Shown here piece after piece: positions 2,977-64,000 of a stretch of DNA of 64,000 nt. How positions within the stretch are numbered: the stretch's first letter is position 1; each line of letters opens with the position of its first letter. The stretch spans positions 72,007 through 136,006 of the forward strand of contig JAMPIH010000005.1 of NCBI GenBank assembly GCA_023662825.1, in the 5' to 3' direction. The notes beneath the pieces are model-generated. The model worked only from the letters and a program-made list of their open reading frames with translations, made no database searches and was not told the DNA's origin. This DNA comes from Bacteroides sp. (lineage in GTDB: Bacteria; Bacteroidota; Bacteroidia; Bacteroidales; P3). A program made the position numbers and the translations under genes.

Positions 2977-4914
2977 TCAGAAATGCACCTTGAGCCCGCC
3001 GCGCACGGTCACCTGGGGCATGGGGTCGCCGGCGTTGATTTCGTAGCGTTGGCCCAGCAGGTTCTCGCCGCAGACCCATAGGTCGAGCCATTTGGTCACG
3101 CGCACCTGCCCGCGCAGGTTCCACAGCACGAAATCCTCCTTCGATTCCGTGCCCTGGCCGTTGGTGCGCACCGAAGTGTAGAGGCCGGCGATGTACTGCA
3201 CGCCGGTGGACACCGACCAACGCCCCTCCTGGAAGCCCGCCCCCACGTAGAGTTTGTGTTCGGGCGCGGCGACAACGGGATTCTCCATATGCAGGAAACT
3301 GTAGTTGGCGTCCACCGACCAGGCCGCATTGATGCGGAAGGCCGACTGCACCTCCAAGCCTACGTTCTCTATCGCCCCCGAATTCTGGTTCAGCATGCCG
3401 CTTCCGTTCGGATTGGGCAAGGTCATGATGAGGTTCCTGCCCCGTATGTAGAAGACATTGAGCCCGTAAGACAGCCGCCCGCCCAGGAGCCGTTGGGCAA
3501 AAGCGATTTCGTAGTTCCACATCGACTCGGGCTTCAAATCCGGATTCTGGGGCGGGAACATATACATCTCGCGCAGGATCGGATAGCGGAAACCTTTCGA
3601 GGCCGAAGCCTTCAGCTCGATGGCGTGGGGCAGGTGGAAGGCCAGCCCCGCCTGCGGCACCCATTCGGCACCCACGCGGGAATGATAGTCGAAACGCAGG
3701 CCGGCGTTCAGGCTCAGCCATCTGCCGATATCCTGCCGGAACTCCACATAGCCCGCCAGTTCATCTTCGTGCTTGTTCACCAAATCGCTCCGCGTACCCT
3801 CGCGCTCCCCGCTCACATACTCGTTCCACGCCCTGCCGCCGTAGCGGAACCAGTCGAAGCCCGCCGTAATCCGGTTCCCCTTGAAGAAGCGCGCACTCTG
3901 ATAGAGCGACACCCCCATCATGTCGTCGTAAGACTTGAAGCGGCTGTCTCTCGGTTCCTCGCCCGCGGCGGGGTTGTAGCCGTCGTTGATCCAGTGGTTT
4001 CCCCAGTTGTAGAAGAAACTCAGCGCGCCGGAAGTCTTCTCGTACCCGTTCTCCACGGCCAGCGAGGCCATGCCCCGCGTGATGCGCTGGTCGGCATCGC
4101 TCAAAGGCGCGGACACCGGGCCGGGGTTGGCGGCGTTGAAGTGGGTCACGTTCACGTCCGCCTGCACCGTCCAGTTCTTGCTGGCCTCGTAGGCCACCTT
4201 GCCGTAGCCGCCGTACTGTTCGAATTCCGTGTTGCTCCGGTGGCCGTCGGTGCGGTTGTAGGACGCGCTCACCACGCTCGAGAAACGCCCCTTGCGGACA
4301 CGGTTCGTCGCCTCGGTTTCCAAGGTGTTGTAGGTGCCGTAGCCGGCGCGGATGTCGGTGCGCACGCCGTCCTGGTGCATCTTGCGGGTAACGATGTTGA
4401 CCACGCCGCCCATCGCGTTCGAGCCGTAGAGCACCGAGGCCGGGCCGCGCAGCACCTCCACGCGGTCGGCCAAGAGCGTCTGGTAGGCGTCGGAAATGGG
4501 ATGCCCGAAGATGCCGGCGTATTGCGGATGGCCGTCGATCAGCACCATCAGGCGGGCGTTGCCGCCGCTCAGTCCGCGCAGGGAGATGCCGCCCGCCGCG
4601 CCGTTGGACACGCCGTAGCCCATCACGCCGCGCGAGGTCACGAACAGCCCCGGCACCTGCTCGGTGAGCATCGGCAGCAGGGACGACTGCATGGATTCCT
4701 CAATCTGGGCGCGGCCGATCACCGAGACGGTCTGAGAGAGGTGGCGCAGGTCTATCTGCGCGCGGGTGCCGGTGATGACCACCTCCTGCAAGGCCGCGCC
4801 GCGCACCGTGCTGTCGGCCGTGGCAGGCACCCAACCCCTGGCGGCTTCCTGCGCCGGAGCCATAGATAGCCCCGCGCACGCCAAGGCAACGAACATCAGC
4901 GCTTGTTTCAACAT
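2977..4914 (-). CDS. TonB-dependent outer-membrane receptor (plug plus 22-strand barrel, C-terminal aromatic residue)
   Basis: Signal peptide; TonB-box-like EVVITGTRAQ; plug and barrel motifs; ends ...GGLKVHF; the track ORF starts at GTG 4947 and the ATG is at 4914. Confidence 0.85.
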   Translation of the reverse strand: MLKQALMFVALACAGLSMAPAQEAARGWVPATADSTVRGAALQEVVITGTRAQIDLRHLSQTVSVIGRAQIEESMQSSLLPMLTEQVPGLFVTSRGVMGYGVSNGAAGGISLRGLSGGNARLMVLIDGHPQYAGIFGHPISDAYQTLLADRVEVLRGPASVLYGSNAMGGVVNIVTRKMHQDGVRTDIRAGYGTYNTLETEATNRVRKGRFSSVVSASYNRTDGHRSNTEFEQYGGYGKVAYEASKNWTVQADVNVTHFNAANPGPVSAPLSDADQRITRGMASLAVENGYEKTSGALSFFYNWGNHWINDGYNPAAGEEPRDSRFKSYDDMMGVSLYQSARFFKGNRITAGFDWFRYGGRAWNEYVSGEREGTRSDLVNKHEDELAGYVEFRQDIGRWLSLNAGLRFDYHSRVGAEWVPQAGLAFHLPHAIELKASASKGFRYPILREMYMFPPQNPDLKPESMWNYEIAFAQRLLGGRLSYGLNVFYIRGRNLIMTLPNPNGSGMLNQNSGAIENVGLEVQSAFRINAAWSVDANYSFLHMENPVVAAPEHKLYVGAGFQEGRWSVSTGVQYIAGLYTSVRTNGQGTESKEDFVLWNLRGQVRVTKWLDLWVCGENLLGQRYEINAGDPMPQVTVRGGLKVHF

Positions 4915-4970
4915 GATGCGGACTTTGCGGACGCAAAAATACTTCACGAGACAAATCCTCCCCGAGAAAA

Positions 4971-5918
4971 CTACTTATCCAGATCGATGATTTCGTATTC
5001 GAGCGAACCCAGCCCTATCTTGGCCGCGTGGTCGATGGTGTGCGTGCCGTGGCGGCTGTTGATGCGCTCTATCAGCGGCGCGTTGTCGTTGCCCTCGCTG
5101 GCCTTCATGTGGAAGATGATGTCCACGCAGGCCTTGTCGAGCGCCACGGGGTCGGTCGAAGCCAGGATGCCGTAATCCTTCAGGAGAACCTCGGAGGGAT
5201 GGGCGGCGCAATCGCAGTCCACCGACATATTGTTCATCACGTTGATATAGACGATATTTTCGCCGAAATAATCGTGAACGGCCTGCGCCGCCGCGGCCAT
5301 CGATTCCAGAAAATCATCCTGAGGTGCGATGTTCTCCCAGATCTCCTCCGCCTTGTCGGTTTTCCCGGCCGAGTGGATATACGCCTTGCCGTCGGCCGAG
5401 GCCACGCCGATGCTGGCGTTCTTGAGCACGCCGCCGTAGCCGCCCATGGCATGACCCTTGAAGTGGGCGAGGTTTATCATATAGTCGTAGCGGTTCAGGT
5501 GGCTTCCCACAAGGTCGTGCCGGATATGCTTCCTGTCCTTCACCGGAATCTTGATCTGCCCCTCTTCGTCCATCAGGTCGACGGGGGCGATTTTATCGAA
5601 GCCGTGTTCGCGGATGGTCTGCCAATGCGCTTCCGTGGTGTTGCGCTTGCCCGCGTAGGCGGTGTTGCATTCCACGATGGTGCCGTGAACGCTGTCCACC
5701 AGTTGCCCGATGAGGGCGGGTTGCAGGTAGTTGGGGTTGCCGGCCTCGCCGGTGCTGATTTTCACGGCCACCTTGTGTCCGTCGGCGGAACGTCCGAGCG
5801 CCTGATAGATTCTAACGAGCGCCTCGGGCGAAATCTCGCGCGTCATAAATACTTTCGACTGGGCGGAAGCCGCCAGGGAAACGGTCATGGCAAGCATAAG
5901 GAAGATGAGTTTTTTCAT
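4971..5918 (-). CDS. Exported DUF362-domain protein, co-oriented just upstream of the TonB-dependent receptor (likely operon)
   Basis: Signal peptide MKKLIFLMLAMTVSLAASAQ; the DUF362 assignment is from recollection of the family; 23-bp gap to the receptor gene. Confidence 0.55.
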   Translation of the reverse strand: MKKLIFLMLAMTVSLAASAQSKVFMTREISPEALVRIYQALGRSADGHKVAVKISTGEAGNPNYLQPALIGQLVDSVHGTIVECNTAYAGKRNTTEAHWQTIREHGFDKIAPVDLMDEEGQIKIPVKDRKHIRHDLVGSHLNRYDYMINLAHFKGHAMGGYGGVLKNASIGVASADGKAYIHSAGKTDKAEEIWENIAPQDDFLESMAAAAQAVHDYFGENIVYINVMNNMSVDCDCAAHPSEVLLKDYGILASTDPVALDKACVDIIFHMKASEGNDNAPLIERINSRHGTHTIDHAAKIGLGSLEYEIIDLDK

Positions 5919-6422
5919 GATTGACTTTTTTATCGGCTGCAAAATTATCACGAAGCCCCCAATCTCCCCTTATACAGATTCCCGATTGTGTTACCAGAAT
6001 TGCTTTTTATGCGCAAGGTCGCCGCCCCGTACGCGGAAAGCCCGCGGCATTAAAAAAGGCTCACGGGCACGGTGCATATCGTTTTTCCGTGCCACTCAAT
6101 TTTTTCTTCCTGGTTATTGGTGATAACGAGAAGGTTGCAGCAGTGGAGTTCATCGGCGGCTTCGATGAGGGCATCGAGTTCGCGCTTGCGGGTTTTCCCG
6201 GAAGCCATATCGTAACAGACTTGGATAAGTTGTTCAACCTTTGTGTCTTAGGGGCTATATGGTCGATTTTATTCAATAATCACACTGTACTGAATAAAAA
6301 AGTACATATTTTATTCAATACGGAATGTTCGACAGTCTCGAATTTATTTTGTACGATTAATGAAACTACTGCATATTTTAGTTTTGTTTGGTACAACAAA
6401 TAAAATTCACTACCTTCGCCGT

Positions 6423-7634
6423 ATGGAAATCATTTCACGACAGATATACATAGACCATATTCTGAGGTTCCTGAACAAGGGTATGATGATAGCTCTCACC
6501 GGTCAGCGTCGGGTGGGTAAAAGTTATGTGCTTCGGGAACTTGCTGAAATTATCCGTCAGAATAATCCCGATGCCAACATCGTATATATCAACAAGGAGA
6601 AGAAGAAATTCGATTCGATAAAAAACGATTCAGATTTGTCTGCCTATATCGAGGGAAAGTTTCCCGAAGATGGGGATAATTATCTGCTGATAGATGAAGT
6701 GCAGGATATTGAAGGTTTCGAGAATGTATTGAGAAGTCTTAACGCTGATGAGGAGTGTCAGATAGTCGTTACCGGGAGCAATGCAAAGATGCTTTCGTCG
6801 GAGTTGTCAACCTATCTTGGGGGAAGATATATTGACATTCATATCCAGAGCTTGTCTTATCGTGAATTTCTCCGTTTCCATAATCTTGAAGAATCGGCTG
6901 AAAGCCTTGAGAAGTATCTCTCATTTGGAGGTCTTCCGCATCTTTACAGGCTCGGACTTGAAAATGAAGACATGGTTTGGGAATATGTGCAGAACATTTA
7001 CAACACCATAGTGCTGAAAGATGTGGTGCAAAGAGAAGGGCTGCGCAATGTCACATTGTTTGAGAATCTGATGGCGTATGTCAGCGACAATACAGGCCAG
7101 CTTGTTTCGGCCACATCTCTGTCGAAATATCTTAAGGCCCAGAGAGTGGAGCTTACTCCGCTGTCCGCTATCAATTACCTGAAGGCTGCCTCAAACGCTT
7201 ATATTATCAACAAAGTACAAAGGTATGACATCCAGGGCAAGCGGCTGTTGGAGACTAACGATAAATACTACTTTGAAGACCTTGGATTGAGGAATCTGCT
7301 GGTCGGAAGCAACCGTGCAAAAGACATGGAGAAGATAATGGAAAATGCCGTGTATCTTCACTTGAAGAACCTTGGCTATAAAGTTGCCGTCGGAACACTG
7401 CCTAAGGGAGAAATAGACTTTATTGCCGAAAAGGGAGGCGATAAAGTCTACATTCAGGTTGCTTATTTGCTCAACGAGGATTCGACTGTAAAACGCGAGT
7501 TCGGCAATTTGACACAAATTTCCGACAATTATCCCAAATACGTCGTGTCAATGGATCCTATAAGCAAACCGAAGGACTACGACGGAATCATTCATATATC
7601 ATTGCGGACTTTTTTGCTTACTGACTCATTTTAG
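6423..7634 (+). CDS. AAA+ ATPase of the DUF4143 / COG1373 family
   Basis: Walker A GQRRVGKS and Walker B LLIDEVQ; typical Bacteroidales 'ATP-binding protein'; AT-rich gene; possible TAgtTTTG -7 box at 6379-6386 upstream of ATG 6423. Confidence 0.8.
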   Translation: MEIISRQIYIDHILRFLNKGMMIALTGQRRVGKSYVLRELAEIIRQNNPDANIVYINKEKKKFDSIKNDSDLSAYIEGKFPEDGDNYLLIDEVQDIEGFENVLRSLNADEECQIVVTGSNAKMLSSELSTYLGGRYIDIHIQSLSYREFLRFHNLEESAESLEKYLSFGGLPHLYRLGLENEDMVWEYVQNIYNTIVLKDVVQREGLRNVTLFENLMAYVSDNTGQLVSATSLSKYLKAQRVELTPLSAINYLKAASNAYIINKVQRYDIQGKRLLETNDKYYFEDLGLRNLLVGSNRAKDMEKIMENAVYLHLKNLGYKVAVGTLPKGEIDFIAEKGGDKVYIQVAYLLNEDSTVKREFGNLTQISDNYPKYVVSMDPISKPKDYDGIIHISLRTFLLTDSF

Positions 7635-7657
7635 GTGATTTCATCACAGGTTTAAGA

Positions 7658-8302
7658 TTATTCCATCACCCCGATGTTCCGCAGCCAGGCCCCGATGGTC
7701 TCGGCATTGATGCGGCCGCTGGTAAGGCCTTCGCCAGTAAGGTGTTGGGCGTCGGGCGTCAGTTCCACGATACGTGCCAGGGTCTCGTCGCGGTAGGTGG
7801 CGGCGTAGGTGCAGAAAGGCACCACCGTCTTGCCGTGGAAATCGTAGCTTTCGGCAAAGGTGCAGATGATCATCGGCGTGGTCCACCACCAGACGGGGCA
7901 TCCGATAAATACGGTGTCGTAGCTGTTCCAGTTTTCCACCGCGTTGAGGATTTCAGGACGGGCGTCCGCGTCCTTTTCCTCGCGGGCCACTTCCGTGCAG
8001 GGCGTGTATTCGGTGGGGTAGGGGTTCACCGGTTCGATGCGGAAGATGTCGGCACCCGTCTGACGCACGATTTCCTGCGCCATGCGCTGTGTGGTGCCGC
8101 CCCAGCTGAAATAGGCCACCAAGGTCTTGGAGGAACCGCCCACAGCGGTTGAGTCTTCGCCCGAAGTGTCGGGGTCGTCGGGAAGGGCGGGTGTTTCGGT
8201 GCTGGGCGTACCGGGCCCGGTTTCGGGTTCATCGTCGGGGGAGCAGGCGGCAATGCTTACCAGAAACATGCCCGCCAACAGGGGAAGCAGATATTTTTTC
8301 AT
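7658..8302 (-). CDS. Flavodoxin-like lipoprotein
   Basis: Lipoprotein signal MKKYLLPLLAGMFLVSIAAC, Pro/Thr-rich linker, then a flavodoxin fold (KTLVAYFSWGGTTQRMA ... GCPVWWWT). Confidence 0.7.
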   Translation of the reverse strand: MKKYLLPLLAGMFLVSIAACSPDDEPETGPGTPSTETPALPDDPDTSGEDSTAVGGSSKTLVAYFSWGGTTQRMAQEIVRQTGADIFRIEPVNPYPTEYTPCTEVAREEKDADARPEILNAVENWNSYDTVFIGCPVWWWTTPMIICTFAESYDFHGKTVVPFCTYAATYRDETLARIVELTPDAQHLTGEGLTSGRINAETIGAWLRNIGVME

Positions 8303-8460
8303 GACAGTAAGTATTAGGCGCCGGTTTCCCGGCTTTGTACGGCGGCAAAGGTAGGGTGTTCGTTTCACCTCCGCAGAACAAAAACTACGGATAGAATTTC
8401 CTTTTTTTCGGAAAACGATGCCGTTTCCCTCAAAAACCGAAATCATGGTATCTATAACCG

Positions 8461-8476
8461 TGATTTATGTAAATCA
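8461..8476. promoter_or_regulatory. Perfect 16-bp palindrome TGATTTATGTAAATCA in the divergent intergenic region, a candidate operator
   Basis: 7+7 inverted repeat with a 2-nt spacer between the divergently transcribed flavodoxin and DHFR-family genes. Confidence 0.35.
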
Positions 8477-8533
8477 TCACAGAAAGTTTCACTCTACTTT
8501 TACGGTGTCGGAAACCAATAAACATGCAGAAAT

Positions 8534-11686: not shown

Positions 11687-12718
11687 TTAGAATGGCTCCT
11701 TTTCAAGCAATCGATCCAACTGGGCTTGAAGTTCCTCTCTTTTGGGCAGATAAAGTTGGTATTTTGCTGCAAAAAGTTGATTTGTATTATCTTGCAGCGC
11801 ATATTCCATAAGAAGTTCATCTTTCTTTGCCCCAAGTACAATGCCGATAGGGGGGTTATCGTCCGGTTGGCAAATTTCGGTCTTGAAGTAGTTGATGTAC
11901 AGATTCATTTGCCCAATGTCATTGTGTCTTATTTCTGCCCGTTTAAGGTCTATCAGCACATAACATTTCAGGATGCAATGATAAAACACCAAATCAACCT
12001 TGAAGCATCTGCTCCCTATCTGCATTGTGTATTGTCGTCCGATAAATGCAAAACCGCGTCCCAGCTCCAATAGGAATTGTTCCATATTTGCTTTGAGTGC
12101 GGCCTCCAAGTCACATTCCCTATATCGCTTCCTTGCAGGCAATCCCGTAAATTCCAGCACATAAGGATCATGTATTATATCTTGCGGCGTAAGCACCTGA
12201 TGTCCTTCATTGGCTAAAGCTAAAATACCTTCTTTGTCTGTGCTCAATGCCAACCGTTGAAATAAGGAACTTTTTATCTGTCGTTTAAGTTCACGTACCT
12301 TCCATCCTTCCTGGATGGCTTGCTTAAAGTAGAATTGCATTTCCAATGGGTCATCGCATTTCAGTAATTCGAAATAGTGACTCCAAGACAATTTGTGAGA
12401 CAGTGTTTCACAAATTGGAAATGCTACATATAACTTACGCATATAGTTTAGGTTGGAGCGGCTGAAGCCTTTTCCTCGTGCTAATGTCAGATCCTTTGAT
12501 AGGTTGACCAATAGTTGCTTGCCGTACTCGGCTCTGGCAGCTCCTTTCTGTTCGAACTCTACGATGTATTGTCCCGTTTTCCAATTGGCTTCAAGGAGGT
12601 TGGTATTTACAGCGGTTATGGCTTTTTCCTTTGCTGTATCCCATAAGCCGATAATGCGGTCAACAAGTTCATCATATCCTTTGCCGTTATTATGCGTTGT
12701 CGTTATGTCTTGACCCAT
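11687..12718 (-). CDS. DUF1016 (YhcG-like) PDDEXK nuclease-domain protein, paralog 1
   Basis: YhcG_N-like N-terminus and a PDDEXK-like C-terminus (VDLVFY..YVLIDLK); AT-rich; conserved leader with GAGGAGG just upstream of ATG 12718; an alternative upstream ATG at 12766. Confidence 0.75.
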   Translation of the reverse strand: MGQDITTTHNNGKGYDELVDRIIGLWDTAKEKAITAVNTNLLEANWKTGQYIVEFEQKGAARAEYGKQLLVNLSKDLTLARGKGFSRSNLNYMRKLYVAFPICETLSHKLSWSHYFELLKCDDPLEMQFYFKQAIQEGWKVRELKRQIKSSLFQRLALSTDKEGILALANEGHQVLTPQDIIHDPYVLEFTGLPARKRYRECDLEAALKANMEQFLLELGRGFAFIGRQYTMQIGSRCFKVDLVFYHCILKCYVLIDLKRAEIRHNDIGQMNLYINYFKTEICQPDDNPPIGIVLGAKKDELLMEYALQDNTNQLFAAKYQLYLPKREELQAQLDRLLEKEPF

Positions 12719-12814
12719 TTCAGTCCTCCTCAAATTCTCGGTGTTGTCGGTAATTTCAATTTCCATAAGTTTTTCGGGGCCATGGAAACAAAAGGGTTCG
12801 GCAAGGCCGGAAGT

Positions 12815-14719: not shown

Positions 14720-15814
14720 CTATTCGTTTTCTTCCAGTTTCTTTAATTCTTCATTTTCTTCAAACTCTTCAATCCATTCCTTCACCTTGGCTTGCAATAA
14801 AGCCTTGTTGGGGAGATAAAGCTGATAGGCAGAAGCATAGATATTGGCCTCCTTAGGCAAGGTGAGTTCCACAAGTGCATCGTTCTTCTCCTTGCACAGC
14901 AGAATGCCGATTGTCGGCTTTTCAAAATCTTGTTTGACATAGCGGTCATAATAGTTGACATACATCTGCATCTGTCCAAGATCTTGGTGAGTAAGTTTGT
15001 CTATCTTCAAATCTATAAGTACATAGCATTGCAGCAAACGATTATAGAACACTAAGTCAACAAAGAAATGCTGTTCATCGAATGTGAACCGTTTCTGCCT
15101 CGCTTCAAAAAGGAACCCTTTGCCGAGTTCTAATAGAAATTGCTGCATCTTGTTGATGATGGCATTCTCTAATTTCGATTCCGAGTAGGCGGCATCGGAT
15201 TTCAGACCGAGAAACTCCAATGTGATGGGATTCTTGATGATGTCCGATGGTTTTTCGATGGTCTGTCCCTCTCGTGCCAACCGCATTACTTCGGCTTTGT
15301 TACGGCTCAATGCAAGGCGCTCGTAGAGGCTACTGCCTATCTGACGGCTGAGCTGTCGTACGCTCCATTGTTGCTCGGCACATTCTATTTCATAGAAACT
15401 GCGGGCATCGGGATTCTCGATGCGCATAAGAATAAGATAATGAGACCACGAAAGGGAGAACGCGGGAATCTGTTCTATGTAGGAGGTGTTTTCAATTTGA
15501 TGAACACCGTTTATCAAATTGGCATAGACCAAATAAAACTGTCGGATTTGACGCAAATAGGGATACGACCATCCGTCCCCAAACCTATCCGTCAGACGCT
15601 TGGATAATTCTTGCAATACTGCTTTTCCGTATTCGGCTCTCGTGGCACCTTTCTGTTCATATTCCACTATGTATTGTCCGATATGATACTTGGTATAGAC
15701 CTCTGCCACGTTGACGGCGGTGGACACACGTTTTCTAGCCTGTTCTACAAGGTCTGCTACCTTTTGAAACAGGGTGTTCATATCATGGATGTTTGCGGCG
15801 ATGTCTTGTCCCAT
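14720..15814 (-). CDS. DUF1016 (YhcG-like) PDDEXK nuclease-domain protein, paralog 2
   Basis: ~40% identical to paralog 1; the same conserved leader precedes ATG 15814; the longer track ORF (to 16030) has no nearby start codon. Confidence 0.75.
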   Translation of the reverse strand: MGQDIAANIHDMNTLFQKVADLVEQARKRVSTAVNVAEVYTKYHIGQYIVEYEQKGATRAEYGKAVLQELSKRLTDRFGDGWSYPYLRQIRQFYLVYANLINGVHQIENTSYIEQIPAFSLSWSHYLILMRIENPDARSFYEIECAEQQWSVRQLSRQIGSSLYERLALSRNKAEVMRLAREGQTIEKPSDIIKNPITLEFLGLKSDAAYSESKLENAIINKMQQFLLELGKGFLFEARQKRFTFDEQHFFVDLVFYNRLLQCYVLIDLKIDKLTHQDLGQMQMYVNYYDRYVKQDFEKPTIGILLCKEKNDALVELTLPKEANIYASAYQLYLPNKALLQAKVKEWIEEFEENEELKKLEENE

Positions 15815-15980
15815 TTCAGTCCTCCTCAATTTCTCGATATTATCAATAATTTCAACTTCAAAGGTAGTTTTTATTTGGTTCGGATACAAAGGAGGATTGG
15901 ATTCCCCAAAAATGGCATTTATGCCAACTTTTTGGAATGCTCGGCTTATGCGTATCTTCGCGTGGTAAAGAAAGCCTCCT

Positions 15981-16547
15981 ATGCAAACCCCGAACCCCGA
16001 CAAACCCCGCTGCTTCTGGGCGAACCCCAAGAATCCCCTTTATATTGAATATCACGACAAGGAATGGGGCGTGCCCGAACACGACGACCGAAAATTGTTC
16101 GAAATGCTGATTCTCGAGGGCTTTCAGGCCGGTCTGTCGTGGGAGTGCGTGCTCAACAAGCGCGAGGCCTTCCGCCGTGTCTTTGCCGGTTTCGACCCCG
16201 GGAAAGTGGCCGCGTTCACCGAAGCGCAACAGGAAAGACTGATGGCCGAGCCCGGCATCATCCGCAACCGCCTCAAGATAAAGGCCGCCACCATTAACGC
16301 ACAGATTTTCTTGAAAATCCAGGCCGAGTTCGGTTCGTTCGACGCCTATCTGCAAGGCTTCACGCAAGGCAAGACACTTTACGAAACGGGCAAGGCTAGC
16401 AACGCCCTCTCGGACGCCCTTTCCAGAGACCTGAGGAAGCGCGGCATGAAATTCGTGGGAACCACCATCGTCTACGCCTTCCTGCAAGCCGTCGGCGCAA
16501 TAAATTCGCACGAAAAGGATTGCTTTCTGTACTGCGGCAGGAACTGA
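15981..16547 (+). CDS. tag: DNA-3-methyladenine glycosylase I
   Basis: Strong Tag family match (EYHDKEWGVP, FEMLILEGFQAGLSW). Confidence 0.9.
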   Translation: MQTPNPDKPRCFWANPKNPLYIEYHDKEWGVPEHDDRKLFEMLILEGFQAGLSWECVLNKREAFRRVFAGFDPGKVAAFTEAQQERLMAEPGIIRNRLKIKAATINAQIFLKIQAEFGSFDAYLQGFTQGKTLYETGKASNALSDALSRDLRKRGMKFVGTTIVYAFLQAVGAINSHEKDCFLYCGRN

Positions 16548-28230: not shown

Positions 28231-30201
28231 TTATCGTACAATCACCTTGTGGCTCTTGTTCCCGGCCTTTACGATATACAGGCCGCTGTGCCGTACCGGA
28301 ATGGCGGTGGCGTGGCCGTTGTAGAGGCATTGACCGAGCGTGTTATAAACCTGCACGTCACGGTATTCGGAAAGATGGATAACGCGGTCTCTGGCGTACA
28401 CACGGAAGCCGTCTTCTTTCCGGCTTTCGTTGCCTACATTATCCGGTTCTTTCTCGAAGTTGGCCGTCAGTTCCATATCTTCAGTCACTTCAAAGGTGTA
28501 AACCGCTTTTGTGCTGAACACGGAGCCGTCCATTTCCGTCCAGTTCACGAAGCGGTAGCCCTCGTTGGGCGTGGCGGTGATGGTTGCATTCTCGCCTTGG
28601 CTATAGGTGCCACTTCCTGCAATAGTGGCCACACCCCAGTCGGTATTGTTGCTCTGTACCGATATCGATATATTGAACCTGTCAATGATGACAAGGGTCT
28701 TTGATATTCGGACAGCCGAGAAGTAGTTGTTGTTTCCGTTTTGACTCGCCTTCACCGTTATGGTTCCTTTTTTCTGACAATCGAGAACGGCCACGTCTCC
28801 TGCATAGTAAATATCGGCTATGCCTTCCGGAGAGATTTCATATTCAACCGGAAGCCCGGAAGATGTTGAGGCGGTAAGTTCTATTTGATCATCCACATTA
28901 ACATCCCGAAAGCTTTGATTCCATGATAAAGTCTGGTTCGCTTTGGTGATGGTCAGGGTGCCGCTGTCGTAGCTGAATCGATAGTTGGTCGCCTCGCCAC
29001 CTGAAACACAGATGGGGTATTCCCCGACATCGGAAGTCTGCGTGGCTTCACACTGCACTGTCGGCAATGTATTTAGCGCCGAATAAGGGCGGTCATTGTT
29101 GACAAATCCCGAATACTCTATCTCGAATGCAGGATTTTTCGTGCCATAAGTTCGGGTATAGTCGGATACGGAAACCTGCAACAGCCGTTTGGATACGGTA
29201 AGCGTGCCGGGATGGTATTCAAAAGAATAGTTTTGCGCCTGCCCTCCGGATATTGTTATCTCATAATTTCCTACCGTCGATTGTTTATTCGCATGACTTG
29301 CGGCGACCGGCAACTGCTGTAAATCTGCTATCCCGTCATTATTCAAAAAACCCGAATACGAAAGTTCGAAAATAGGATTTTCTTCTCCGTATTCACGAGA
29401 GATGTCCTTTACCGAAACCGATAGCGTTTGCGGTTTGATTTCGTAATAGACGGCCACTTCCGCCGTATAAGTAAATCCTTCATATTCAAAGGTGATGGGG
29501 ATTAGTGCACGATGTGTACCCGCTTCTTTCTGCATTTGGGGTTCCAGCATGCTTATAATCTTACATCCCTCTACATTGCATTTCAATCCGGGAAATGCCG
29601 GTTCCTGTCCTGTATAGGCAAAAATATCCTGTTCAAATGAGAGTATCGGAACAAGCTTGCGTTGTTCCGTGTTTTCAAGTGAATAAGCCTTTATGTCAGC
29701 CACATAGAGGGTTGCCGCTTCAGAACCTTGAGACTGCCACTTTGACGGCGGTAGGAGGGAAAGATACATGATATATCGCAAACGATCACAGCCGGAAAAA
29801 ACCGAGTTGCCTAATCCTCTAAGTTTGGGAGGAAATACTACAGAAATAAGATTTCCACACCCGAGAAATGATAGGTTTTCCACTATCTCTAATGAATCAG
29901 GAAGTCTTATTTTTTTTATAGAGGAGGAGTAGGAAAAGGCACCGTGGCTACGACCACTTCCATGATCATAATATCTTAATCTGTTGACTATATAAGGAAT
30001 GCCTTCATACATAATTGAAGAAGGGATTACATACACGGAATCAGTGTAACCGGAAATACTGGCCTTAGGCGTAATGACATCTGCATGTACCCCATCATCA
30101 ATACAGTAAGTTATTTTATCAATCTGTACGACTACAGCAAAGTCCTTAGTTATGCTTGCGGCTGCAATAAAGGCAATCAGAATCAAAAAGATTTTTTTCA
30201 T
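28231..30201 (-). CDS. Cell-surface protein with BspA-type leucine-rich repeats, MBG repeats and a T9SS C-terminal sorting domain
   Basis: Signal peptide MKKIFLILIAFIAAAS; repeated YG(E/T)xNPxFE...GNYxI (MBG) modules; C-terminal Por tail; lower GC. Confidence 0.7.
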   Translation of the reverse strand: MKKIFLILIAFIAAASITKDFAVVVQIDKITYCIDDGVHADVITPKASISGYTDSVYVIPSSIMYEGIPYIVNRLRYYDHGSGRSHGAFSYSSSIKKIRLPDSLEIVENLSFLGCGNLISVVFPPKLRGLGNSVFSGCDRLRYIMYLSLLPPSKWQSQGSEAATLYVADIKAYSLENTEQRKLVPILSFEQDIFAYTGQEPAFPGLKCNVEGCKIISMLEPQMQKEAGTHRALIPITFEYEGFTYTAEVAVYYEIKPQTLSVSVKDISREYGEENPIFELSYSGFLNNDGIADLQQLPVAASHANKQSTVGNYEITISGGQAQNYSFEYHPGTLTVSKRLLQVSVSDYTRTYGTKNPAFEIEYSGFVNNDRPYSALNTLPTVQCEATQTSDVGEYPICVSGGEATNYRFSYDSGTLTITKANQTLSWNQSFRDVNVDDQIELTASTSSGLPVEYEISPEGIADIYYAGDVAVLDCQKKGTITVKASQNGNNNYFSAVRISKTLVIIDRFNISISVQSNNTDWGVATIAGSGTYSQGENATITATPNEGYRFVNWTEMDGSVFSTKAVYTFEVTEDMELTANFEKEPDNVGNESRKEDGFRVYARDRVIHLSEYRDVQVYNTLGQCLYNGHATAIPVRHSGLYIVKAGNKSHKVIVR

Positions 30202-30821
30202 TGTATTTTATTTTTAGAATTTTCATCGCAAAACGCTTCTATTTCGCAAAGCGTTTTATAGACTAACTCCAGTATTGCGTGGAGAAAATTTGCGGAGGAT
30301 ATGCTATATCCATCATAAACTTCGTCTAATCCTGATTCGCCATACTTTTCCAAACAAGCTTGAATCCGTTCTTTTCGTTCCTTGGAAAGACTCCCATGAA
30401 CGAAATAGTTGCGGAGTTCCCTAATTGATTCATTTATCAATTCTATGTCTGGATTGCAGGGGAACCCGAGGGCTAATATGGTTTTCAATGGCTTTTGGCC
30501 ACTTACACTTATGGTGCGTTCGTAAAATCTTATAATTCTGCAAAGCCCCGTTTCCCAAAAACAATAGATGGCGCAGAATATTGATTGATTGAATAATGCG
30601 TATTGACTGGTTATGTCGAGCTGCGCGTTGTATAAAGGATTACAGAGAGAACTGATTTCCTCTACATCAATCGATGCATCGTTGTTGATGGAGCCTATCT
30701 CATCTTCGAGGTTTTTGATCGCTGCGCAAATCAGGGAGGATTGTTCCTCAATGATTTGTTTATAGGCCGCATGCTCAAAATCAATCCCTGCACGTATGGA
30801 GGTGCGCCCTTTGGCTATCAT
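30198..30821 (-). CDS. Hypothetical protein with a C-terminal Rx4H motif (possible HEPN-like domain)
   Basis: AT-rich ORF; RELRNYFVH motif; stop overlaps (ATGA) the start of the surface-protein gene; the track ORF begins at TTG 30875 and the first ATG is at 30821. Confidence 0.4.
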   Translation of the reverse strand: MIAKGRTSIRAGIDFEHAAYKQIIEEQSSLICAAIKNLEDEIGSINNDASIDVEEISSLCNPLYNAQLDITSQYALFNQSIFCAIYCFWETGLCRIIRFYERTISVSGQKPLKTILALGFPCNPDIELINESIRELRNYFVHGSLSKERKERIQACLEKYGESGLDEVYDGYSISSANFLHAILELVYKTLCEIEAFCDENSKNKIQ

Positions 30822-30928
30822 TTTGTTGGTTTTTAGTGTATTTGAGTTCGTGTGTCTGGCTTCAATGTGTAGCAAATATAATTTAATTATCCGTAACTAA
30901 AAATCAATACTCTTGATTAAATGTAAGA

Positions 30929-59724: not shown

Positions 59725-60873
59725 ATGGCGGATTGCAAGCGCATATACCGGCTGTTGTTCTGGATAGGTTTCCCGATAGCGGACCTGGCTGTCTTGTTCC
59801 TGCTGTTCCGCTTCGCGGACGTTCCGTTCTGGCCTCCCTTCTGGCGCACCTACCTGATAGGGAATCTGGCGGTGTTCTTTCTGCTGTATCTGTTCTACGC
59901 CTTTTTGCGGCTGGTTGGCGGGAAGCGTTTGCGCAAGTACGCGGCCGCCGCCACGGGTGTTTTATTTTTGATTTGTGTTTACGCTATGGTTATCTCCACG
60001 TTCAACATACGGATCGACAGGATCAGGCTCTCGCAGGTGAATCCTGAGCGGAAGGCTCCCCAGGGCTTGCGTCATTACCGTATCCTGCAGGTTTCGGACA
60101 TGCATATAGGCAGCTTCACCTCGCCCAAGCAGGTAAGGCGCCTGGTGCAGCAGGCCCTGCACACCAAACCGGATTTGGTGGTTTTTACGGGCGATATGGT
60201 GAACTTCAGCACCTCGGAGATGACGCCGCATCTGGCCGAATTGTCGCACCTGCGCGCGCCCGACGGGGTGTATTGCGTGCTGGGGAACCACGACTACGGG
60301 GGCTATGTGCGTTGGCCGGACACTGCCTCGCGCCACGCCAACCTGCAGAAGATGCTGCAATACTACAGGAACATAGGCTGGGTGTGCCTGAACAACGCCT
60401 CGGTAAAGATCGAGCGCGGAGGCGACACCCTGCACCTGGTGGGGGTGGAGAACTGGGGCAGGGAGAAGCGTTTCCCCAAGAAGGGGGACTTGAAGGCGGC
60501 GCTTTCGCCGGAGGCGGTGCTGGAGGTTAAACGGAGTGCCTCGCAGGATCCGCTGGCCGACACGGTGCGCGACAGGCGCGATCCGCAGGTCTATACGGTG
60601 CTGCTCTCGCACGACCCCTCGCATTTCGATTCGGCGGTGTATCTGCGCTGTCCGCAGATCGACCTTACGCTGGCCGGGCACACGCACGGCATGCAGTTCG
60701 GCCTGCGCATCAACGGAAAGGACTACAGCCCGGCGCGTTTTATGTATGAACACTATTCGGGGCTCTACGTCATGGCCAACGGCCAGGCGCTCTACGTAAA
60801 CACCGGCTGCGGATTCAACGGGATTCCGTTCCGGCTCGGCATGCGGCCTTGCTTTACTCTTTTTGAGCTGTAG
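59725..60873 (+). CDS. Membrane-anchored metallophosphoesterase (calcineurin-like)
   Basis: Five N-terminal TM helices; DMHIG...GDMVN...GNHDY...SHDP...GHTHG phosphoesterase motifs. Confidence 0.8.
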   Translation: MADCKRIYRLLFWIGFPIADLAVLFLLFRFADVPFWPPFWRTYLIGNLAVFFLLYLFYAFLRLVGGKRLRKYAAAATGVLFLICVYAMVISTFNIRIDRIRLSQVNPERKAPQGLRHYRILQVSDMHIGSFTSPKQVRRLVQQALHTKPDLVVFTGDMVNFSTSEMTPHLAELSHLRAPDGVYCVLGNHDYGGYVRWPDTASRHANLQKMLQYYRNIGWVCLNNASVKIERGGDTLHLVGVENWGREKRFPKKGDLKAALSPEAVLEVKRSASQDPLADTVRDRRDPQVYTVLLSHDPSHFDSAVYLRCPQIDLTLAGHTHGMQFGLRINGKDYSPARFMYEHYSGLYVMANGQALYVNTGCGFNGIPFRLGMRPCFTLFEL

Positions 60874-60900
60874 GAGGCGGAATGGAGACGGTATAAAAAG

Positions 60901-60938
60901 AACGAGGTCGTGCAGCAAAATGCACGACCTCGTTTTCC
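60901..60938. terminator. Bidirectional Rho-independent terminator (aacgaggtcgtgca-gcaaaa-tgcacgacctcgtt)
   Basis: 14-bp perfect stem flanked by A-run and T-run; sits between the convergent metallophosphoesterase and DUF2971 genes. Confidence 0.65.
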
Positions 60939-60940
60939 CT

Positions 60941-61789
60941 TTAAAGTGTTGGCATCAAGCATAAAATCGATACCGGCATTGTGAGGGCAAAGATACAGTT
61001 TTTTCTCCATTCGTTAGCATCTTTGTCTCGGAGGTTGGCTTTGCCACAGAACATTCCATATTCCAATATGGGAATCTTGGGAACTATTTTTTCTAATAAC
61101 CTCGAGTTTTCTGAGTTGAATACACTGTCTTCGTGGGTTACGTCGGGAGCGAAATTCAGAATTATGGCTATCAGGCTATCCGCTAAATCGAGATATGTAG
61201 GTTCTTCTTCCGAGCAGACAAGAACCCTCCATTCCTGTTCGTAAGCCCAATCTTGAGTTTTTGTGAAAAAATATTCTTTTTCGTATTTCTGTAGAGACTC
61301 TTTGATGTTTTCATCTGTAAAAATGTTCTCGTTAAAATCTGGAGTATATTGAACAGACCGCCTTGCCATTTCGGGTTTTAATTGCTGTAGCAACTTGGCT
61401 TTGTCAAAAACAAGGCAAACGCCGCACCCTCTATCGGCATAGTGTCCCCACATGGCAGGAATATCGTATCCGGCTTTTTGGGGGGTGTCTTGGGTAAAAC
61501 TGAGTTGTTTGTATTTTGACAGTTCTTTTTCAAACTTATCCTCGATGTTTGTTTCGGATAGCCTCTCAGGATAACATTTCCTACGATATACTTCATTGAT
61601 ATCGTTCATTTTCTTTAGGGCTCCGAACCGTAATTTATTGGAAGATAAAATCAAACAGGCGGCCTGAACGGAAGTGTAATGGTATAGTTTTTCCACTCGC
61701 TTAAAGGCTTCGCGTGTTTCACGAGTATTGTCATCTTCTGAAGGGTGAGGATGGCAATGTTTCAATTTTGGAGTATCAGGGTTGCACAT
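60941..61789 (-). CDS. DUF2971 family protein
   Basis: AT-rich; family-typical motifs (LYHYTS, MWGHYADRGCGVCLVF, EWR); the family assignment is from recollection. Confidence 0.55.
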   Translation of the reverse strand: MCNPDTPKLKHCHPHPSEDDNTRETREAFKRVEKLYHYTSVQAACLILSSNKLRFGALKKMNDINEVYRRKCYPERLSETNIEDKFEKELSKYKQLSFTQDTPQKAGYDIPAMWGHYADRGCGVCLVFDKAKLLQQLKPEMARRSVQYTPDFNENIFTDENIKESLQKYEKEYFFTKTQDWAYEQEWRVLVCSEEEPTYLDLADSLIAIILNFAPDVTHEDSVFNSENSRLLEKIVPKIPILEYGMFCGKANLRDKDANEWRKNCIFALTMPVSILCLMPTL

Positions 61790-61954
61790 CTCTTTAATGT
61801 TTTAAAAATTAAATCCTATTTTTTGTTTTCAATCACACCGTACAGCAGTACCGTGTAGGTACCCTCTGTGTTGTATCCATGAGAGCAATACACTTGGTAC
61901 TTCGCCCCTTCTCCCGTATGGGTCTCCGTTTTTCCGTAGCCCCAATATAGTGGC

Positions 61955-62176
61955 TTAGGCCACTACGCCTGTTTCGATTTCGTTTTGGAGGTAGGAGAAG
62001 ACGTAAACGGGGCTTTCGTAATAGAGGCCGGTTTCGGGATTGCAGATGCGTTGAAAGGTTTCCGAACTATAGTATTCGTCTAAAGCCCGTTGCGCATCCC
62101 ATCGGTAGGTTTCCATCAGCATGGCAATCAAATCGGCCGAAAGGCATTCTATCTGGAATTGAATCTCGGGTGTCAC
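61955..62176 (-). CDS. DUF3791 domain protein (copy a)
   Basis: 73 codons; GTG start overlapping (GTGA) the DUF3990 stop; ~35% identical to copy b. Confidence 0.5.
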   Translation of the reverse strand: MTPEIQFQIECLSADLIAMLMETYRWDAQRALDEYYSSETFQRICNPETGLYYESPVYVFSYLQNEIETGVVA

Positions 62177-62661
62177 AGTGAAATCTTTTTAAGCAGGGCG
62201 ATGGCCTTTTCTGAGCCGAAGAAATATTGTACGGCACGGTCTGCGTTAAAGCGAAGTTCTTTAATCAAGTCTTCTATGCTGAGAATCCCCATCAAAAAAC
62301 GCCGTATCTGCACGCCCACCGTATCGTTGGCGATAGGCCCCACCACTATATCATAGGGGTGGGGCGATTCTCCGGTTTTATTCTTTCTGTTTTCCAATAC
62401 AAATTGAGCCCACTCAACACTGTAATCTTCGAAGATTTTGACGTTTAAGCCATTCGGCGCGTGCAAACAAGTTTCGTCAAATTCAAAAGCCGAAACGGTA
62501 GCCGTACCCGTAGCCATACGCGAAGTGGTGCGTTCCGCCATCTTTTGGGCTTGCAACAAGTTGTCGTTCAGGTAAAAGCCAATACCAAAATCTTTTCCTT
62601 TTTTAGAAAAAGAAAGGTCGATGCTTTTAATATCGAGGTTTGACCCGTGGTATAGAATCAT
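62173..62661 (-). CDS. DUF3990 domain protein (N-terminal MILYHGS with an H-G-S motif)
   Basis: 162 aa; family-typical N-terminus; TAATG overlap with the upstream DUF3791 gene. Confidence 0.55.
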   Translation of the reverse strand: MILYHGSNLDIKSIDLSFSKKGKDFGIGFYLNDNLLQAQKMAERTTSRMATGTATVSAFEFDETCLHAPNGLNVKIFEDYSVEWAQFVLENRKNKTGESPHPYDIVVGPIANDTVGVQIRRFLMGILSIEDLIKELRFNADRAVQYFFGSEKAIALLKKISL

Positions 62662-62888
62662 TACTGTATGCGCCCTCCATTGCGCAGGCAGATGGCCTGA
62701 AGGTCATCCACGGCATCGTCAATCGACAAGGTGTGTTCGGCCTCGTAACAGTTCAGGAGAAAGTGGATGCCGCTGTAGCGACGCAGGTAGGCGTAAGCCT
62801 GTGCCATCACCAAATTGTATCTTTCGGCAAAAGCGCTTACACAACAAACAACGTATTCTATTATGTTGAAATCTTTCTGCGTCATCAT
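62661..62888 (-). CDS. DUF3791 domain protein (copy b)
   Basis: 75 aa; overlaps the DUF3990 start. Confidence 0.5.
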   Translation of the reverse strand: MMTQKDFNIIEYVVCCVSAFAERYNLVMAQAYAYLRRYSGIHFLLNCYEAEHTLSIDDAVDDLQAICLRNGGRIQ

Positions 62889-62906
62889 TGCAAAGGTAGG
62901 GAAATT

Positions 62907-63455
62907 TTACATCCTGAACGGGCTTGCGAAGTCTTTGAAGCGTTCGCCTTTTTGGTCTTTGGGCGAGAGGAGGGGGTTGGCGCATTTCCAGTCGATGCCT
63001 ATGTCGGGGTCGTTCCAGAGCAGGCAGCCTTCGGTCTGGGGCGCGTAGGGTGCGGTTACCTTGTAGGCGAACACCGTGCCTTGTTCGCGCGCCACGAACC
63101 CGTGCGCCATGCCCGCCGGCAGCAGGAACTGCAGCTTGTTCTGCTCGCTGAGCTCCACGCATACGTGTTGGCCATAGGTGGGCGAGCCCAGGCGGATATC
63201 CACCGCCACGTCCATCACCGCCCCCTTGATGACCCTTACGATCTTGTCTTGGGCGAAGGGCGGCTTCTGGAAGTGCAGCCCCCGCAGCACGTCCTTGCCA
63301 GACTTCGACTCGTTGTCCTGCACGAAAACGTAGTCCAGACCCGCTTCCTGCCACTTCTTGAGCGAGTAGCTCTCCATAAAGTAGCCCCGCTCGTCTTCGA
63401 AAACGTCGGGGTGGATAATCACCACCCCGGGGATTTTTGTTTCTTCGAATTGCAT
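62907..63455 (-). CDS. rfbC: dTDP-4-dehydrorhamnose 3,5-epimerase
   Basis: Canonical RmlC cupin motifs (RGLHFQ, KGAVMDVAVDIR); internal ATG chosen as the start (the track ORF begins with GTG). Confidence 0.9.
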   Translation of the reverse strand: MQFEETKIPGVVIIHPDVFEDERGYFMESYSLKKWQEAGLDYVFVQDNESKSGKDVLRGLHFQKPPFAQDKIVRVIKGAVMDVAVDIRLGSPTYGQHVCVELSEQNKLQFLLPAGMAHGFVAREQGTVFAYKVTAPYAPQTEGCLLWNDPDIGIDWKCANPLLSPKDQKGERFKDFASPFRM

Positions 63456-63535
63456 GATATTTAAAATATGGTGGTTCACGAGCCTGAACGTCACGGTAGG
63501 TGTGTCGAGGCTGCGTGCCTTGTTTTTTCCCGCGT

Positions 63536-64000
63536 TTACTGGCTTTCGGTTGTATTGTTTAAATTGTCCTCAATCCCTTCGATTGTTGGAAGTGCCGATG
63601 CGACATCATTAAATAACTTTTCCGTTTCGTACTGGGCAATACCCATAGGTTGTGTTATTCCTCTCAGTGCAAATTCAGCTTTCTTATTGCTTTTATTTCT
63701 ACATAGCAGCAGACCGATGGTGGGATTATCCTCAGGAGATTTTACATATTCATCTACTGCTGAAATGTAAAAGTTGAGTTTGCTTACAAACTCAGGGATG
63801 AACTCAACCGCTTTTAACTCTATAGCAACATAACAGTGTAGCTTGACATGATACATTAAAATGTCGATGTAATAGTCTTCGCCATCAACTACGACATTAT
63901 ATTGGCGGCCAATGTAAGAGAAGCCTTTGCCCATCTCCAACAAAAAGTCGGTAACCTTGTCGGCAAGATGATTTTCTATGTCTCTTTCATGCTGTAAGGC
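63536..64000 (-). CDS. DUF1016 (YhcG-like) PDDEXK nuclease-domain protein, paralog 3 (partial; the 5' part runs off the window end)
   Basis: C-terminal half aligns with paralogs 1 and 2 (LLEMGKGFSYIGRQY...YVAIELK); the reading frame stays open to position 64000. Confidence 0.7.
   Translation of the reverse strand, partial: ALQHERDIENHLADKVTDFLLEMGKGFSYIGRQYNVVVDGEDYYIDILMYHVKLHCYVAIELKAVEFIPEFVSKLNFYISAVDEYVKSPEDNPTIGLLLCRNKSNKKAEFALRGITQPMGIAQYETEKLFNDVASALPTIEGIEDNLNNTTESQ

Follow-up and report, generated by a model that had tools for sequence, protein, structure and literature searches.

We examined an AT-rich islet at 60941-62888 of a 64,000-nucleotide (nt) stretch of the genome of Bacteroides sp. 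(GenBank assembly GCA_023662825.1, contig JAMPIH010000005.1, positions 72,007 to 136,006; the whole stretch is called the window below, and positions refer to it unless another sequence is named). The islet consists of two independent modules, horizontally acquired and inserted beside a native rfbC gene: a cassette of three overlapping genes, here called A, B and C (75, 162 and 73 amino acids (aa), respectively; together the triad, 62888-61955), and a stand-alone DUF2971 gene. Gene B encodes a DUF3990 protein for which an ADP-ribosyltransferase (ART) fold is predicted, and we give slightly better than even chances to the overall reading in which these are two modules and the triad is a toxin-antitoxin (TA)-like or abortive-infection module with B as its ART enzyme. 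An earlier interpretation from the letters alone (the sequence-only reading) had seen here an uncharacterised defence module; the triad is listed as a phage-defence candidate (PDC), and it had already been catalogued as such, under the name PDC-M13.

The features of the islet and its flanks are as follows.

62661-62888, minus strand: gene A, 75 aa, DUF3791, PADLOC PDC-M13A; predicted four-helix bundle, probable separate trans-acting partner of B
62173-62661, minus strand: gene B, 162 aa, DUF3990, PDC-M13B; divergent ART fold (predicted), candidate H5-Y30-D104 triad, presumed toxin/effector
61955-62176, minus strand: gene C, 73 aa, PDC-M13C family, GTG start; putative accessory/regulatory module of B
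61790-61954, no strand: spacer between C and the DUF2971 gene, 165 nt, AT-rich, GC 0.42; holds the breakpoint near 61947
60941-61789, minus strand: DUF2971 gene, 282 aa, PADLOC PDC-S31; independent single gene
60901-60934, minus strand: hairpin resembling an intrinsic terminator; closes the DUF2971 gene and parts it from the convergent metallophosphoesterase gene
59725-60873, plus strand: metallophosphoesterase (Metallophos) gene, flank
62907-63494, minus strand: rmlC/rfbC (dTDP-4-dehydrorhamnose 3,5-epimerase), TIGR01221 equivalog at 2.6e-67; third-codon-position GC content (GC3) 0.81, native composition
63536-64000, minus strand: 3' part of a YhcG/DUF1016 PD-(D/E)xK gene, cut by the window end; Pfam YhcG_C 1.3e-44, PDC-S02 7.9e-57; low GC, GC3 0.41

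Predicted ADP-ribosyltransferase fold of the DUF3990 protein

Residues 1-158 of B match positions 1-151 of the 152-position Pfam model DUF3990 (PF13151) with 149.6 bits against a cutoff of 32.2 (E 6.8e-44). The protein starts with MILYHGS and contains GIGFYL, both as described by the sequence-only reading, which had compared this arrangement to ART catalytic cores. An AlphaFold2 model, computed from 73 aligned homologues that are 32-79% identical to the query, reached a predicted local distance difference test score (pLDDT) of 95.1 and a predicted template modelling score (pTM) of 0.89. Thirteen residues are invariant in the 73-sequence alignment, namely H5, G6, D24, F25, G26, F29, Y30, A38, W84, R92, D104, G108 and L157. 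Three of them occupy telling places in the model: H5 (LYHGS) is in strand 2-7, Y30 (GFYL) is in strand 29-32, and D104 directly precedes the fifth strand, 105-109. The catalytic motifs of ARTs sit on strands 1, 2 and 5 (PMC12522546), and H5-Y30-D104 of the modelled protein has this strand 1-2-5 motif placement, in H-Y-D form, making it a candidate catalytic core.

The structural check that the sequence-only reading had proposed was borne out. A Foldseek search with the B model ranked ART folds first (PARP1, diphtheria toxin, VPA0770, ParT, RES-Xre and tankyrase), with weak E-values and a TM-score of about 0.4. The best structural matches are toxins, the ART toxin RhsP2 is also among the matches, and Tpt1/KptA and Arr are found among the weaker ones. 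The model thus displays an ART fold with conserved H-Y-D residues, and this fold, together with the motif I His and the motif II Tyr, would place B in the H-Y-[E/D/Q] clade of the ART superfamily. At the level of sequence, the DUF3990 profile had no match among all PDB sequences even at E=10, and some members of the family have sub-threshold matches to ART-PolyVal. Because the profile lacks a PDB relative and the kinship is visible at fold level, B appears to represent a divergent branch of the ART fold.

The DUF3990 family comprises approximately 2250 clusters at 50% identity. The idea that it is ART-like is upheld by the three invariant residues and the modelled fold, but the link is not new, as Pfam already lists DUF3990 in its ADP-ribosyltransferase clan (PMC7955679). 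The domain also occupies the place of the toxin at the C terminus of Rhs effectors from Serratia (Rhs5) and Enterobacter (RhsA), which are associated with type VI secretion systems (T6SS), and a small immunity gene follows each of them.

Two other proteins contain the C-terminal half of DUF3990 without the His and Tyr motifs, in one case behind a metallophosphoesterase N-terminus (P0257, 329 aa) and in the other joined to a DUF1934 domain (P0220, 215 aa). Both are probably what was left after deletions had inactivated the enzyme.

Partner proteins A and C

A matches Pfam DUF3791 (PF12668) with 77.7 bits (cutoff 25, E 6.7e-22). Its structure, predicted with database homologues, consists of four helices (pLDDT 94.4), and its conserved positions include a polar loop, Y48...H52-T53-x-S55, and a tail, C67...G71-G72. 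The sequence-only reading had labelled the three genes DUF3791-DUF3990-DUF3791, which is right for A and not for C, as the latter has no Pfam match even at E=10. C was rejected as a DUF3791 member: only one of 24 C-family members touches DUF3791 (E=0.005), BLASTP yields no alignment between A and C, and hhalign gives a probability of 10%. Nevertheless, three marginal matches agree in register, and for this reason we retain the possibility, suggested by sequence comparison, that C is a very distant paralogue of A. The C-family profile matches the third gene of the Clostridium tetani plasmid triad described below (3e-15). NCBIfam has no model for A, B, C or the DUF2971 protein.

The triad as a conserved mobile unit

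Each of the three contiguous, co-oriented and overlapping genes matches one of the PDC-M13 models of PADLOC (A, PDLC04435, 7.3e-27; B, PDLC04438, 1.8e-43; C, PDLC04444, 2.5e-16), so the triad is a member of this system. The overlaps of 1-4 nt reported by the sequence-only reading were read directly at both junctions. At the A/B junction, CAGTAATGATT, the stop TAA and the start ATG share 1 nt (TAATG), and at the B/C junction, CTGTGACA, the start GTG and the stop TGA overlap by 4 nt (GTGA). A survey of one genome per species returned 27 DUF3990 loci, of which about 24 have an A-like gene, B and a C-like gene in the same order, mostly with a 4-nt A/B and a 4-8-nt B/C overlap. Small, linked and overlapping genes are one characteristic of type II TA systems, and the triad has it, with 1- and 4-nt overlaps here and overlaps conserved in most of the approximately 24 loci; another, a DNA-binding antitoxin of helix-turn-helix (HTH), ribbon-helix-helix or AbrB type, is absent from the partners of B.

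Homologues of B were found on 86 plasmids, chiefly of Bacteroides (42), Clostridium (15), Phocaeicola (8), Parabacteroides (8) and Moraxella (5), and in seven phage records. The triad itself is carried by plasmids of two phyla. On a C. tetani plasmid it encodes proteins of 75, 161 and 76 aa, and on a 7.6-kb mobilizable Phocaeicola plasmid the cassette is accompanied mainly by replication and mobilization genes. The neighbours of the triad vary by locus, with a nuo operon in one lineage and SusC/D plus AAA_14 genes in another. A conserved neighbour was sought and rejected: among 114 flanking genes of 26 loci, no family has more than three members. A few of these 114 genes are defence-like (type II or III restriction-modification (RM), SoFic, PDC-S09, nucleotidyltransferase). 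In the window the triad lies between PDC-S02 and PDC-S31 genes, and on a closely related contig considered below it is next to AbiEii/AbiEi. The expectation that the triad would prove mobile and associated with defence islands was borne out in its first part, the cassette being self-contained, plasmid-borne and inserted at varied sites, and fell short in its second, with few defence neighbours in the sampled loci.

All three pairwise fusions of the triad proteins exist. B and C are fused in 13 DUF3990 proteins of 224-255 aa, where the C profile matches the C-terminal 65 or so residues (E 4e-21 to 2.5e-8). One protein (P0239) joins A to B, having DUF3791 (29.8 bits, cutoff 25) in addition to DUF3990, and a 149-aa protein on plasmid pMG01-07_1 joins C to A, with the C profile at residues 19-78 (8.6e-14) and DUF3791 at residues 90-148. 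The occurrence of A-B, B-C and C-A fusions argues that A, B and C act together physically, as a three-protein complex. At two loci with a B-C fusion, DUF3791 is a separate adjoining gene, in one case upstream and in the second downstream, which matches the two cyclic orders of PDC-M13 given in the PADLOC supplement.

In a 3.8-kb Anaerovoracaceae contig (CAVFUK010000200.1), the segment 1180-3558 holds a full A-B-C set followed in tandem by a more divergent B-C pair.

Composite origin of the islet

The GC content is 0.41 for the DUF2971 gene and 0.45-0.49 for the triad, compared to 0.58-0.61 for the flanking genes; along the DNA it is 0.40-0.48 over 60800-62900 and 0.55-0.64 on either side. The sequence-only reading had given 40-45% against a backbone of about 60%. 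Low GC and foreign composition are thereby confirmed, with the triad somewhat higher than stated. GC3 separates the genes into three classes: 0.77-0.86 in native genes, 0.51-0.62 in the triad, and 0.41-0.42 in the DUF2971 and YhcG genes. Low-GC DNA runs on past rfbC into the YhcG/DUF1016 gene (63536 to the window end), beyond the islet as originally delimited, so that rfbC, native in composition, has genes of foreign composition on both sides.

A comparison locus is provided by contig JAMPAI010000023.1 (L001), in which positions 4662-6714 correspond to 64000-61947 of the window at 97.5% identity (blastn) and YhcG, rfbC, A, B and C are held in common. The identity stops 8 nt past the stop codon of C, near 61947. 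Directly after C, where the window has the DUF2971 gene, L001 has, on the opposite strand at 6818-8490, genes for the pair AbiEii (toxin, 264 aa) and AbiEi (antitoxin, 293 aa). Its YhcG copy is full-length, 374 aa, and consists of DUF1016_N and YhcG_C. Given the three GC3 classes and the divergence of L001 after C, with AbiE replacing DUF2971, the islet is a composite of at least three acquisitions around the native rfbC, and the defence-type genes in the slot 3' of the triad differ from genome to genome.

The DUF3990 gene of L001 (6001-6488) is frameshifted near codon 108 and split into open reading frames (ORFs) at 6001-6369 and 6342-6488; its partners A and C are intact. The break may be due to an assembly error or mark a toxin gene in decay.

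L001 is labelled as a metagenome-assembled genome of Ruminococcus flavefaciens, yet it is 97.5% identical over 2 kb to the window, which has Bacteroidota features: its segment 12815-14593 encodes a Por_Secre_tail domain of the type IX secretion system, and the DUF3990 protein has a copy at NCBI under the label 'Bacteroides sp.'. The discrepancy points to mis-binning or recent transfer.

Expression signals and boundaries

The sequence-only reading described four co-oriented genes between a metallophosphoesterase and rfbC. The ORFs were confirmed, all on the minus strand, and the flanking genes were identified by Pfam and TIGR01221. An 18-nt spacer separates the rfbC stop from the A start. Within it, TACCTTTG was read directly at 62891-62898 (minus strand); 2 nt separate it from the first ATG of gene A, which lies downstream. 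The Bacteroidetes -7 promoter consensus is TAnnTTTG, and TACCTTTG agrees with it; no -33 TTTG was seen to go with this element. It is speculative whether TACCTTTG is the promoter of the triad or the triad is read through from rfbC. The element could give rise to a near-leaderless transcript, or it could be a chance match. The second ATG of gene A corresponds to the conserved Met position of its homologues.

At the other end, the hairpin (60901-60934) consists of a stem of 14 perfectly paired bp, 8 of them G-C, and a loop of 6 nt, and on the minus strand CTTTTTATAC comes after it. It had been described as a strong bidirectional terminator. The 14-bp hairpin and the minus-strand T-run are there, but the terminator scan called it for just the minus strand, and the tail on the plus strand, TTCCCTTT, is weaker. 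Direct and inverted repeats were sought at the boundaries of the islet and of the DUF2971 cassette, and yielded only matches of 12-14 nt, which is a chance-level length. Scans for tRNAs and Rfam families, as an integration target or regulatory RNA, found none.

The DUF2971 gene as a separate module

The 282-aa protein matches Pfam DUF2971 with 50.5 bits (cutoff 22, E 5.4e-13) and PDC-S31 at 9.6e-20. DUF2971 is an ART-like family of the H-Y-E clade, related to DarT and AbiGi, in which the His is poorly conserved, the Tyr is strictly conserved and motif III is an ExE motif (PMC12522546). The corresponding motifs here are H37 (LYHYTS), Y117 (MWGHY) and E184-x-E186. In an alignment with five plasmid and phage DUF2971 homologues of 23-27% identity, Y117, E184, E186 and R188 are invariant. 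The domain, the motif II Tyr and the motif III ExE agree with the published family motifs (PMC12522546), and by its sequence the protein classifies as a stand-alone ART-like H-Y-ExE enzyme. One member of the family, Aristaios, is a lactococcal protein of 316 aa encoded by a single gene, with validated abortive-infection-type phage resistance in Lactococcus.

The start codon of the DUF2971 gene is ambiguous. The annotated ATG precedes a 33-residue stretch that lies outside the PADLOC and tblastn matches (61699-61789), and with a start at the in-frame GTG of codon 31 the protein would begin MEKLYHYTS, near the point where the PADLOC models begin to match.

Elsewhere, a P2-like phage (Pseudomonas phage vB_Pae_BR319a; L046, 1396-2160) has a DUF2971 gene flanked by its tail-completion and baseplate genes, and a plasmid of Segatella copri (L044, 739-2217) encodes a 492-aa DUF2971 protein, with a NACHT-domain gene immediately downstream. 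These contexts suggest accessory or defence cargo.

Proposed mechanism and alternative explanations

From the conserved gene order, the overlapping junctions and the A-B, B-C and C-A fusions, A and C are most likely obligate partners that form a complex with B. Toxicity of B is suggested by analogy, on the basis of its similarity to toxins and the use of its domain as an Rhs toxin tip. We propose that the cassette is translationally coupled and that A and C would hold B inactive through direct binding. Neutralisation by binding, as opposed to enzymatic reversal of ADP-ribosylation, is favoured because neither A nor C is a macrodomain. Phage infection or loss of the element would free B, which might then use NAD+ to modify an essential target, protein or nucleic acid, by ADP-ribosylation, or might just consume NAD+, and this NAD+-dependent action would lead to cell arrest. 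A remains a separate gene even where C is fused to B, and is on this account the better candidate for a trans-acting neutraliser, whereas C seems to be a regulatory or sensor module acting on B in cis.

Several observations weigh against a toxin-antitoxin-like or abortive-infection role. The motif III candidate D104 is Asp instead of Glu. A has no recognisable antitoxin, DNA-binding or ADP-ribose-hydrolase fold, and its polar residues Y48, H52, S55 and C67 could confer an activity of its own instead of a role as passive plug. Most of the 114 flanking genes are housekeeping genes, and the association with defence islands is modest in the loci examined. PDC-M13 is one of 145 PDC systems that were put forward explicitly without experimental test (Payne et al., bioRxiv 10.1101/2024.01.29.577857), and our literature search found no experiment on DUF3990, DUF3791 or PDC-M13.

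An explanation close to the one we prefer is that the triad is a purely selfish addiction module, an ART toxin with protein antitoxins that stabilises plasmids and islets by post-segregational killing and has no role in phage defence. Its presence on the 86 plasmids, including C. tetani plasmids and the small mobilizable one with little beyond replication and mobilization genes, is consistent with this, as are the chromosomal copies that form solitary islets among housekeeping genes. Yet the cassette was originally picked up as embedded within BREX, DISARM or type I RM systems, and it adjoins other defence candidates both here and in L001, so that we consider addiction alone unlikely, although not negligible; the two explanations also overlap, as many TA modules do both jobs. 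It is less probable still that B is a non-toxic, regulated NAD-dependent modifying enzyme, performing reversible ADP-ribosylation or acting as a Tpt1-like RNA 2'-phosphotransferase, with A and C as specificity or regulatory subunits. Non-toxic members exist in the ART superfamily (Tpt1/KptA and Arr are among the weaker structural matches), the invariant polar residues of A suggest a functional site, and the three kinds of fusion are what would be expected of subunits of one enzyme. Such an enzyme does not readily account for the patchy, plasmid-borne distribution and foreign composition of the triad, for the service of its domain as an Rhs toxin tip or for the toxins among the best structural matches, and the frameshifted B beside intact A and C in L001 fits decay of a toxin gene, if it is not an assembly error.

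The Rhs connection raises the further question of whether the triad is an orphan polymorphic-toxin/immunity cassette for interbacterial competition, with B as a detached Rhs/T6SS-type tip and A and C as immunity proteins. DUF3990 is indeed the C-terminal domain of T6SS-associated Rhs proteins with a small immunity gene after each, and RhsP2 is among the structural matches of B, but B starts from a codon of its own right at catalytic strand 1 (MILYHGS) and lacks any sequence for delivery or for a recombination handle, and no Rhs, VgrG or PAAR family is among the family matches reported for the sampled loci. Moreover, the partner gene usually precedes the toxin gene, as in TA operons, and the system occurs on small plasmids; we therefore regard this origin as improbable. 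The idea that the DUF2971 gene and the triad form a single four-component system, which the sequence-only reading had left in play by grouping the four genes, scarcely deserves credence. The genes are co-oriented and adjacent, they share an AT-rich stretch, and DUF2971 and DUF3990 are both ART-like; however, a DUF2971 homologue adjoins the triad in none of the 27 genome loci, AbiEii/AbiEi takes its place in L001 despite 97.5% identity over YhcG-rfbC-A-B-C, and a 165-nt gap and a different GC3 part it from the triad. PADLOC models the two separately, and the DUF2971 protein belongs to an ART-like family of its own whose members act alone.

A bolder proposal can be added, which we hold only tentatively and think on balance rather unlikely. 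PDC-M13 may be a distinct class of ART immunity in which two small proteins, maybe anciently related, clamp a minimal H-Y-D ART in a three-protein complex and one partner is a phage sensor. Such a class would bring a new target for defence ARTs and would do without macrodomain, HTH antitoxin or chaperone, unlike DarTG, RES-Xre and CmdTAC.

Other features of the window

The window contains three YhcG/DUF1016 PD-(D/E)xK genes (PDC-S02) and one AAA_14/DUF4143 ATPase gene (PDC-S01), located at 6360-7634 (plus strand), 11687-12766 (minus), 14720-16030 (minus) and 63536-64000 (minus). Each is found in its own low-GC islet, with a 1-kb GC of 0.41-0.46 compared to a window mean of 0.53, which indicates that scattered single-gene AT-rich islets of defence candidates are a general feature of this genome. 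The stretch with the lowest GC, down to 0.38, is at 28231-30875 (minus strand) and encodes a 656-aa surface-type protein with BspA-type leucine-rich repeat, MBG and InlB B-repeat domains. A 225-aa protein from the same stretch has no family match, and neither of the two matches PADLOC.

Significance

Among the candidate systems of Bacteroidales from gut and rumen, PDC-M13 is one of the most frequent, 6530 rumen genomes having given 3324 detections (PMC13356809), and DUF3990 spans Bacteroides and Clostridium plasmids, some phages and Rhs toxins. The present locus adds one more member to known candidate kinds. Its value is that a very common module, still only a candidate, can now be given a specific hypothesis: H5-Y30-D104 as ART core, A as trans-acting neutraliser and C as cis-acting module, with the fusions as evidence for a ternary complex. 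L001, with its frameshifted B and swapped neighbouring defence gene, is a natural comparison locus. If the hypothesis is true, gut microbiota biology gains a common ART-based toxin/defence module; otherwise the mobility of the family must be explained in another way.

Comparison with known systems

PDC candidates were chosen as embedded within BREX, DISARM or type I RM systems, and in the supplement PDC-M13 consists of two three-family cassettes that are cyclic permutations of each other and occur 257 and 112 times (bioRxiv 10.1101/2024.01.29.577857). The triad has the same three families in the same order, and the arrangements A-B-C and BC-A answer to the two cyclic orders of the catalogue. 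The copy described here differs in being outside BREX, DISARM and type I RM systems and in following a native rfbC. The catalogue entry is without mechanistic or experimental description, and a literature search found no paper naming PF13151 or PF12668, the sole paper on DUF3791 being irrelevant.

Compared to the RES systems (ParST, MbcTA, Xre-RES), B has no Pfam RES match and thus falls outside the family, and its motif is H-Y-D as opposed to the R-E-S signature. The partners of B are a four-helix bundle and a second small protein, with no Xre-HTH/COG5642 (DUF2384) antitoxin, and there are three components in the triad as opposed to two. DarTG, a TA system around an ART of the H-Y-E clade with a demonstrated antiphage role, resembles what is proposed for the triad, but the triad has neither a DarT (DUF4433) toxin nor a macrodomain antitoxin. 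CmdTAC is a tripartite defence system of ART toxin, antitoxin and chaperone, in which CmdC is a SecB-like chaperone. Compared by description only, it shares with the triad a three-gene organization around an ADP-ribosyltransferase toxin, which B is presumed to be; it differs in gene order and protein sizes, and no SecB-like chaperone was detected in A or C.

The neighbouring 282-aa DUF2971 protein resembles Aristaios/PDC-S31 in being encoded by a stand-alone gene and having the conserved Tyr and ExE. The likeness to Aristaios is one of family; the 282-aa protein is only 23-27% identical to the aligned plasmid and phage homologues. Finally, the DUF3990 effectors of the Rhs/T6SS type (Serratia Rhs5, Enterobacter RhsA) have the same Pfam domain as B, in toxin position. 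In those effectors a large secreted protein has the domain as its tip and is accompanied by a single unrelated immunity gene, whereas here B appears as a free-standing cytoplasmic protein of 162 aa with two dedicated partners.

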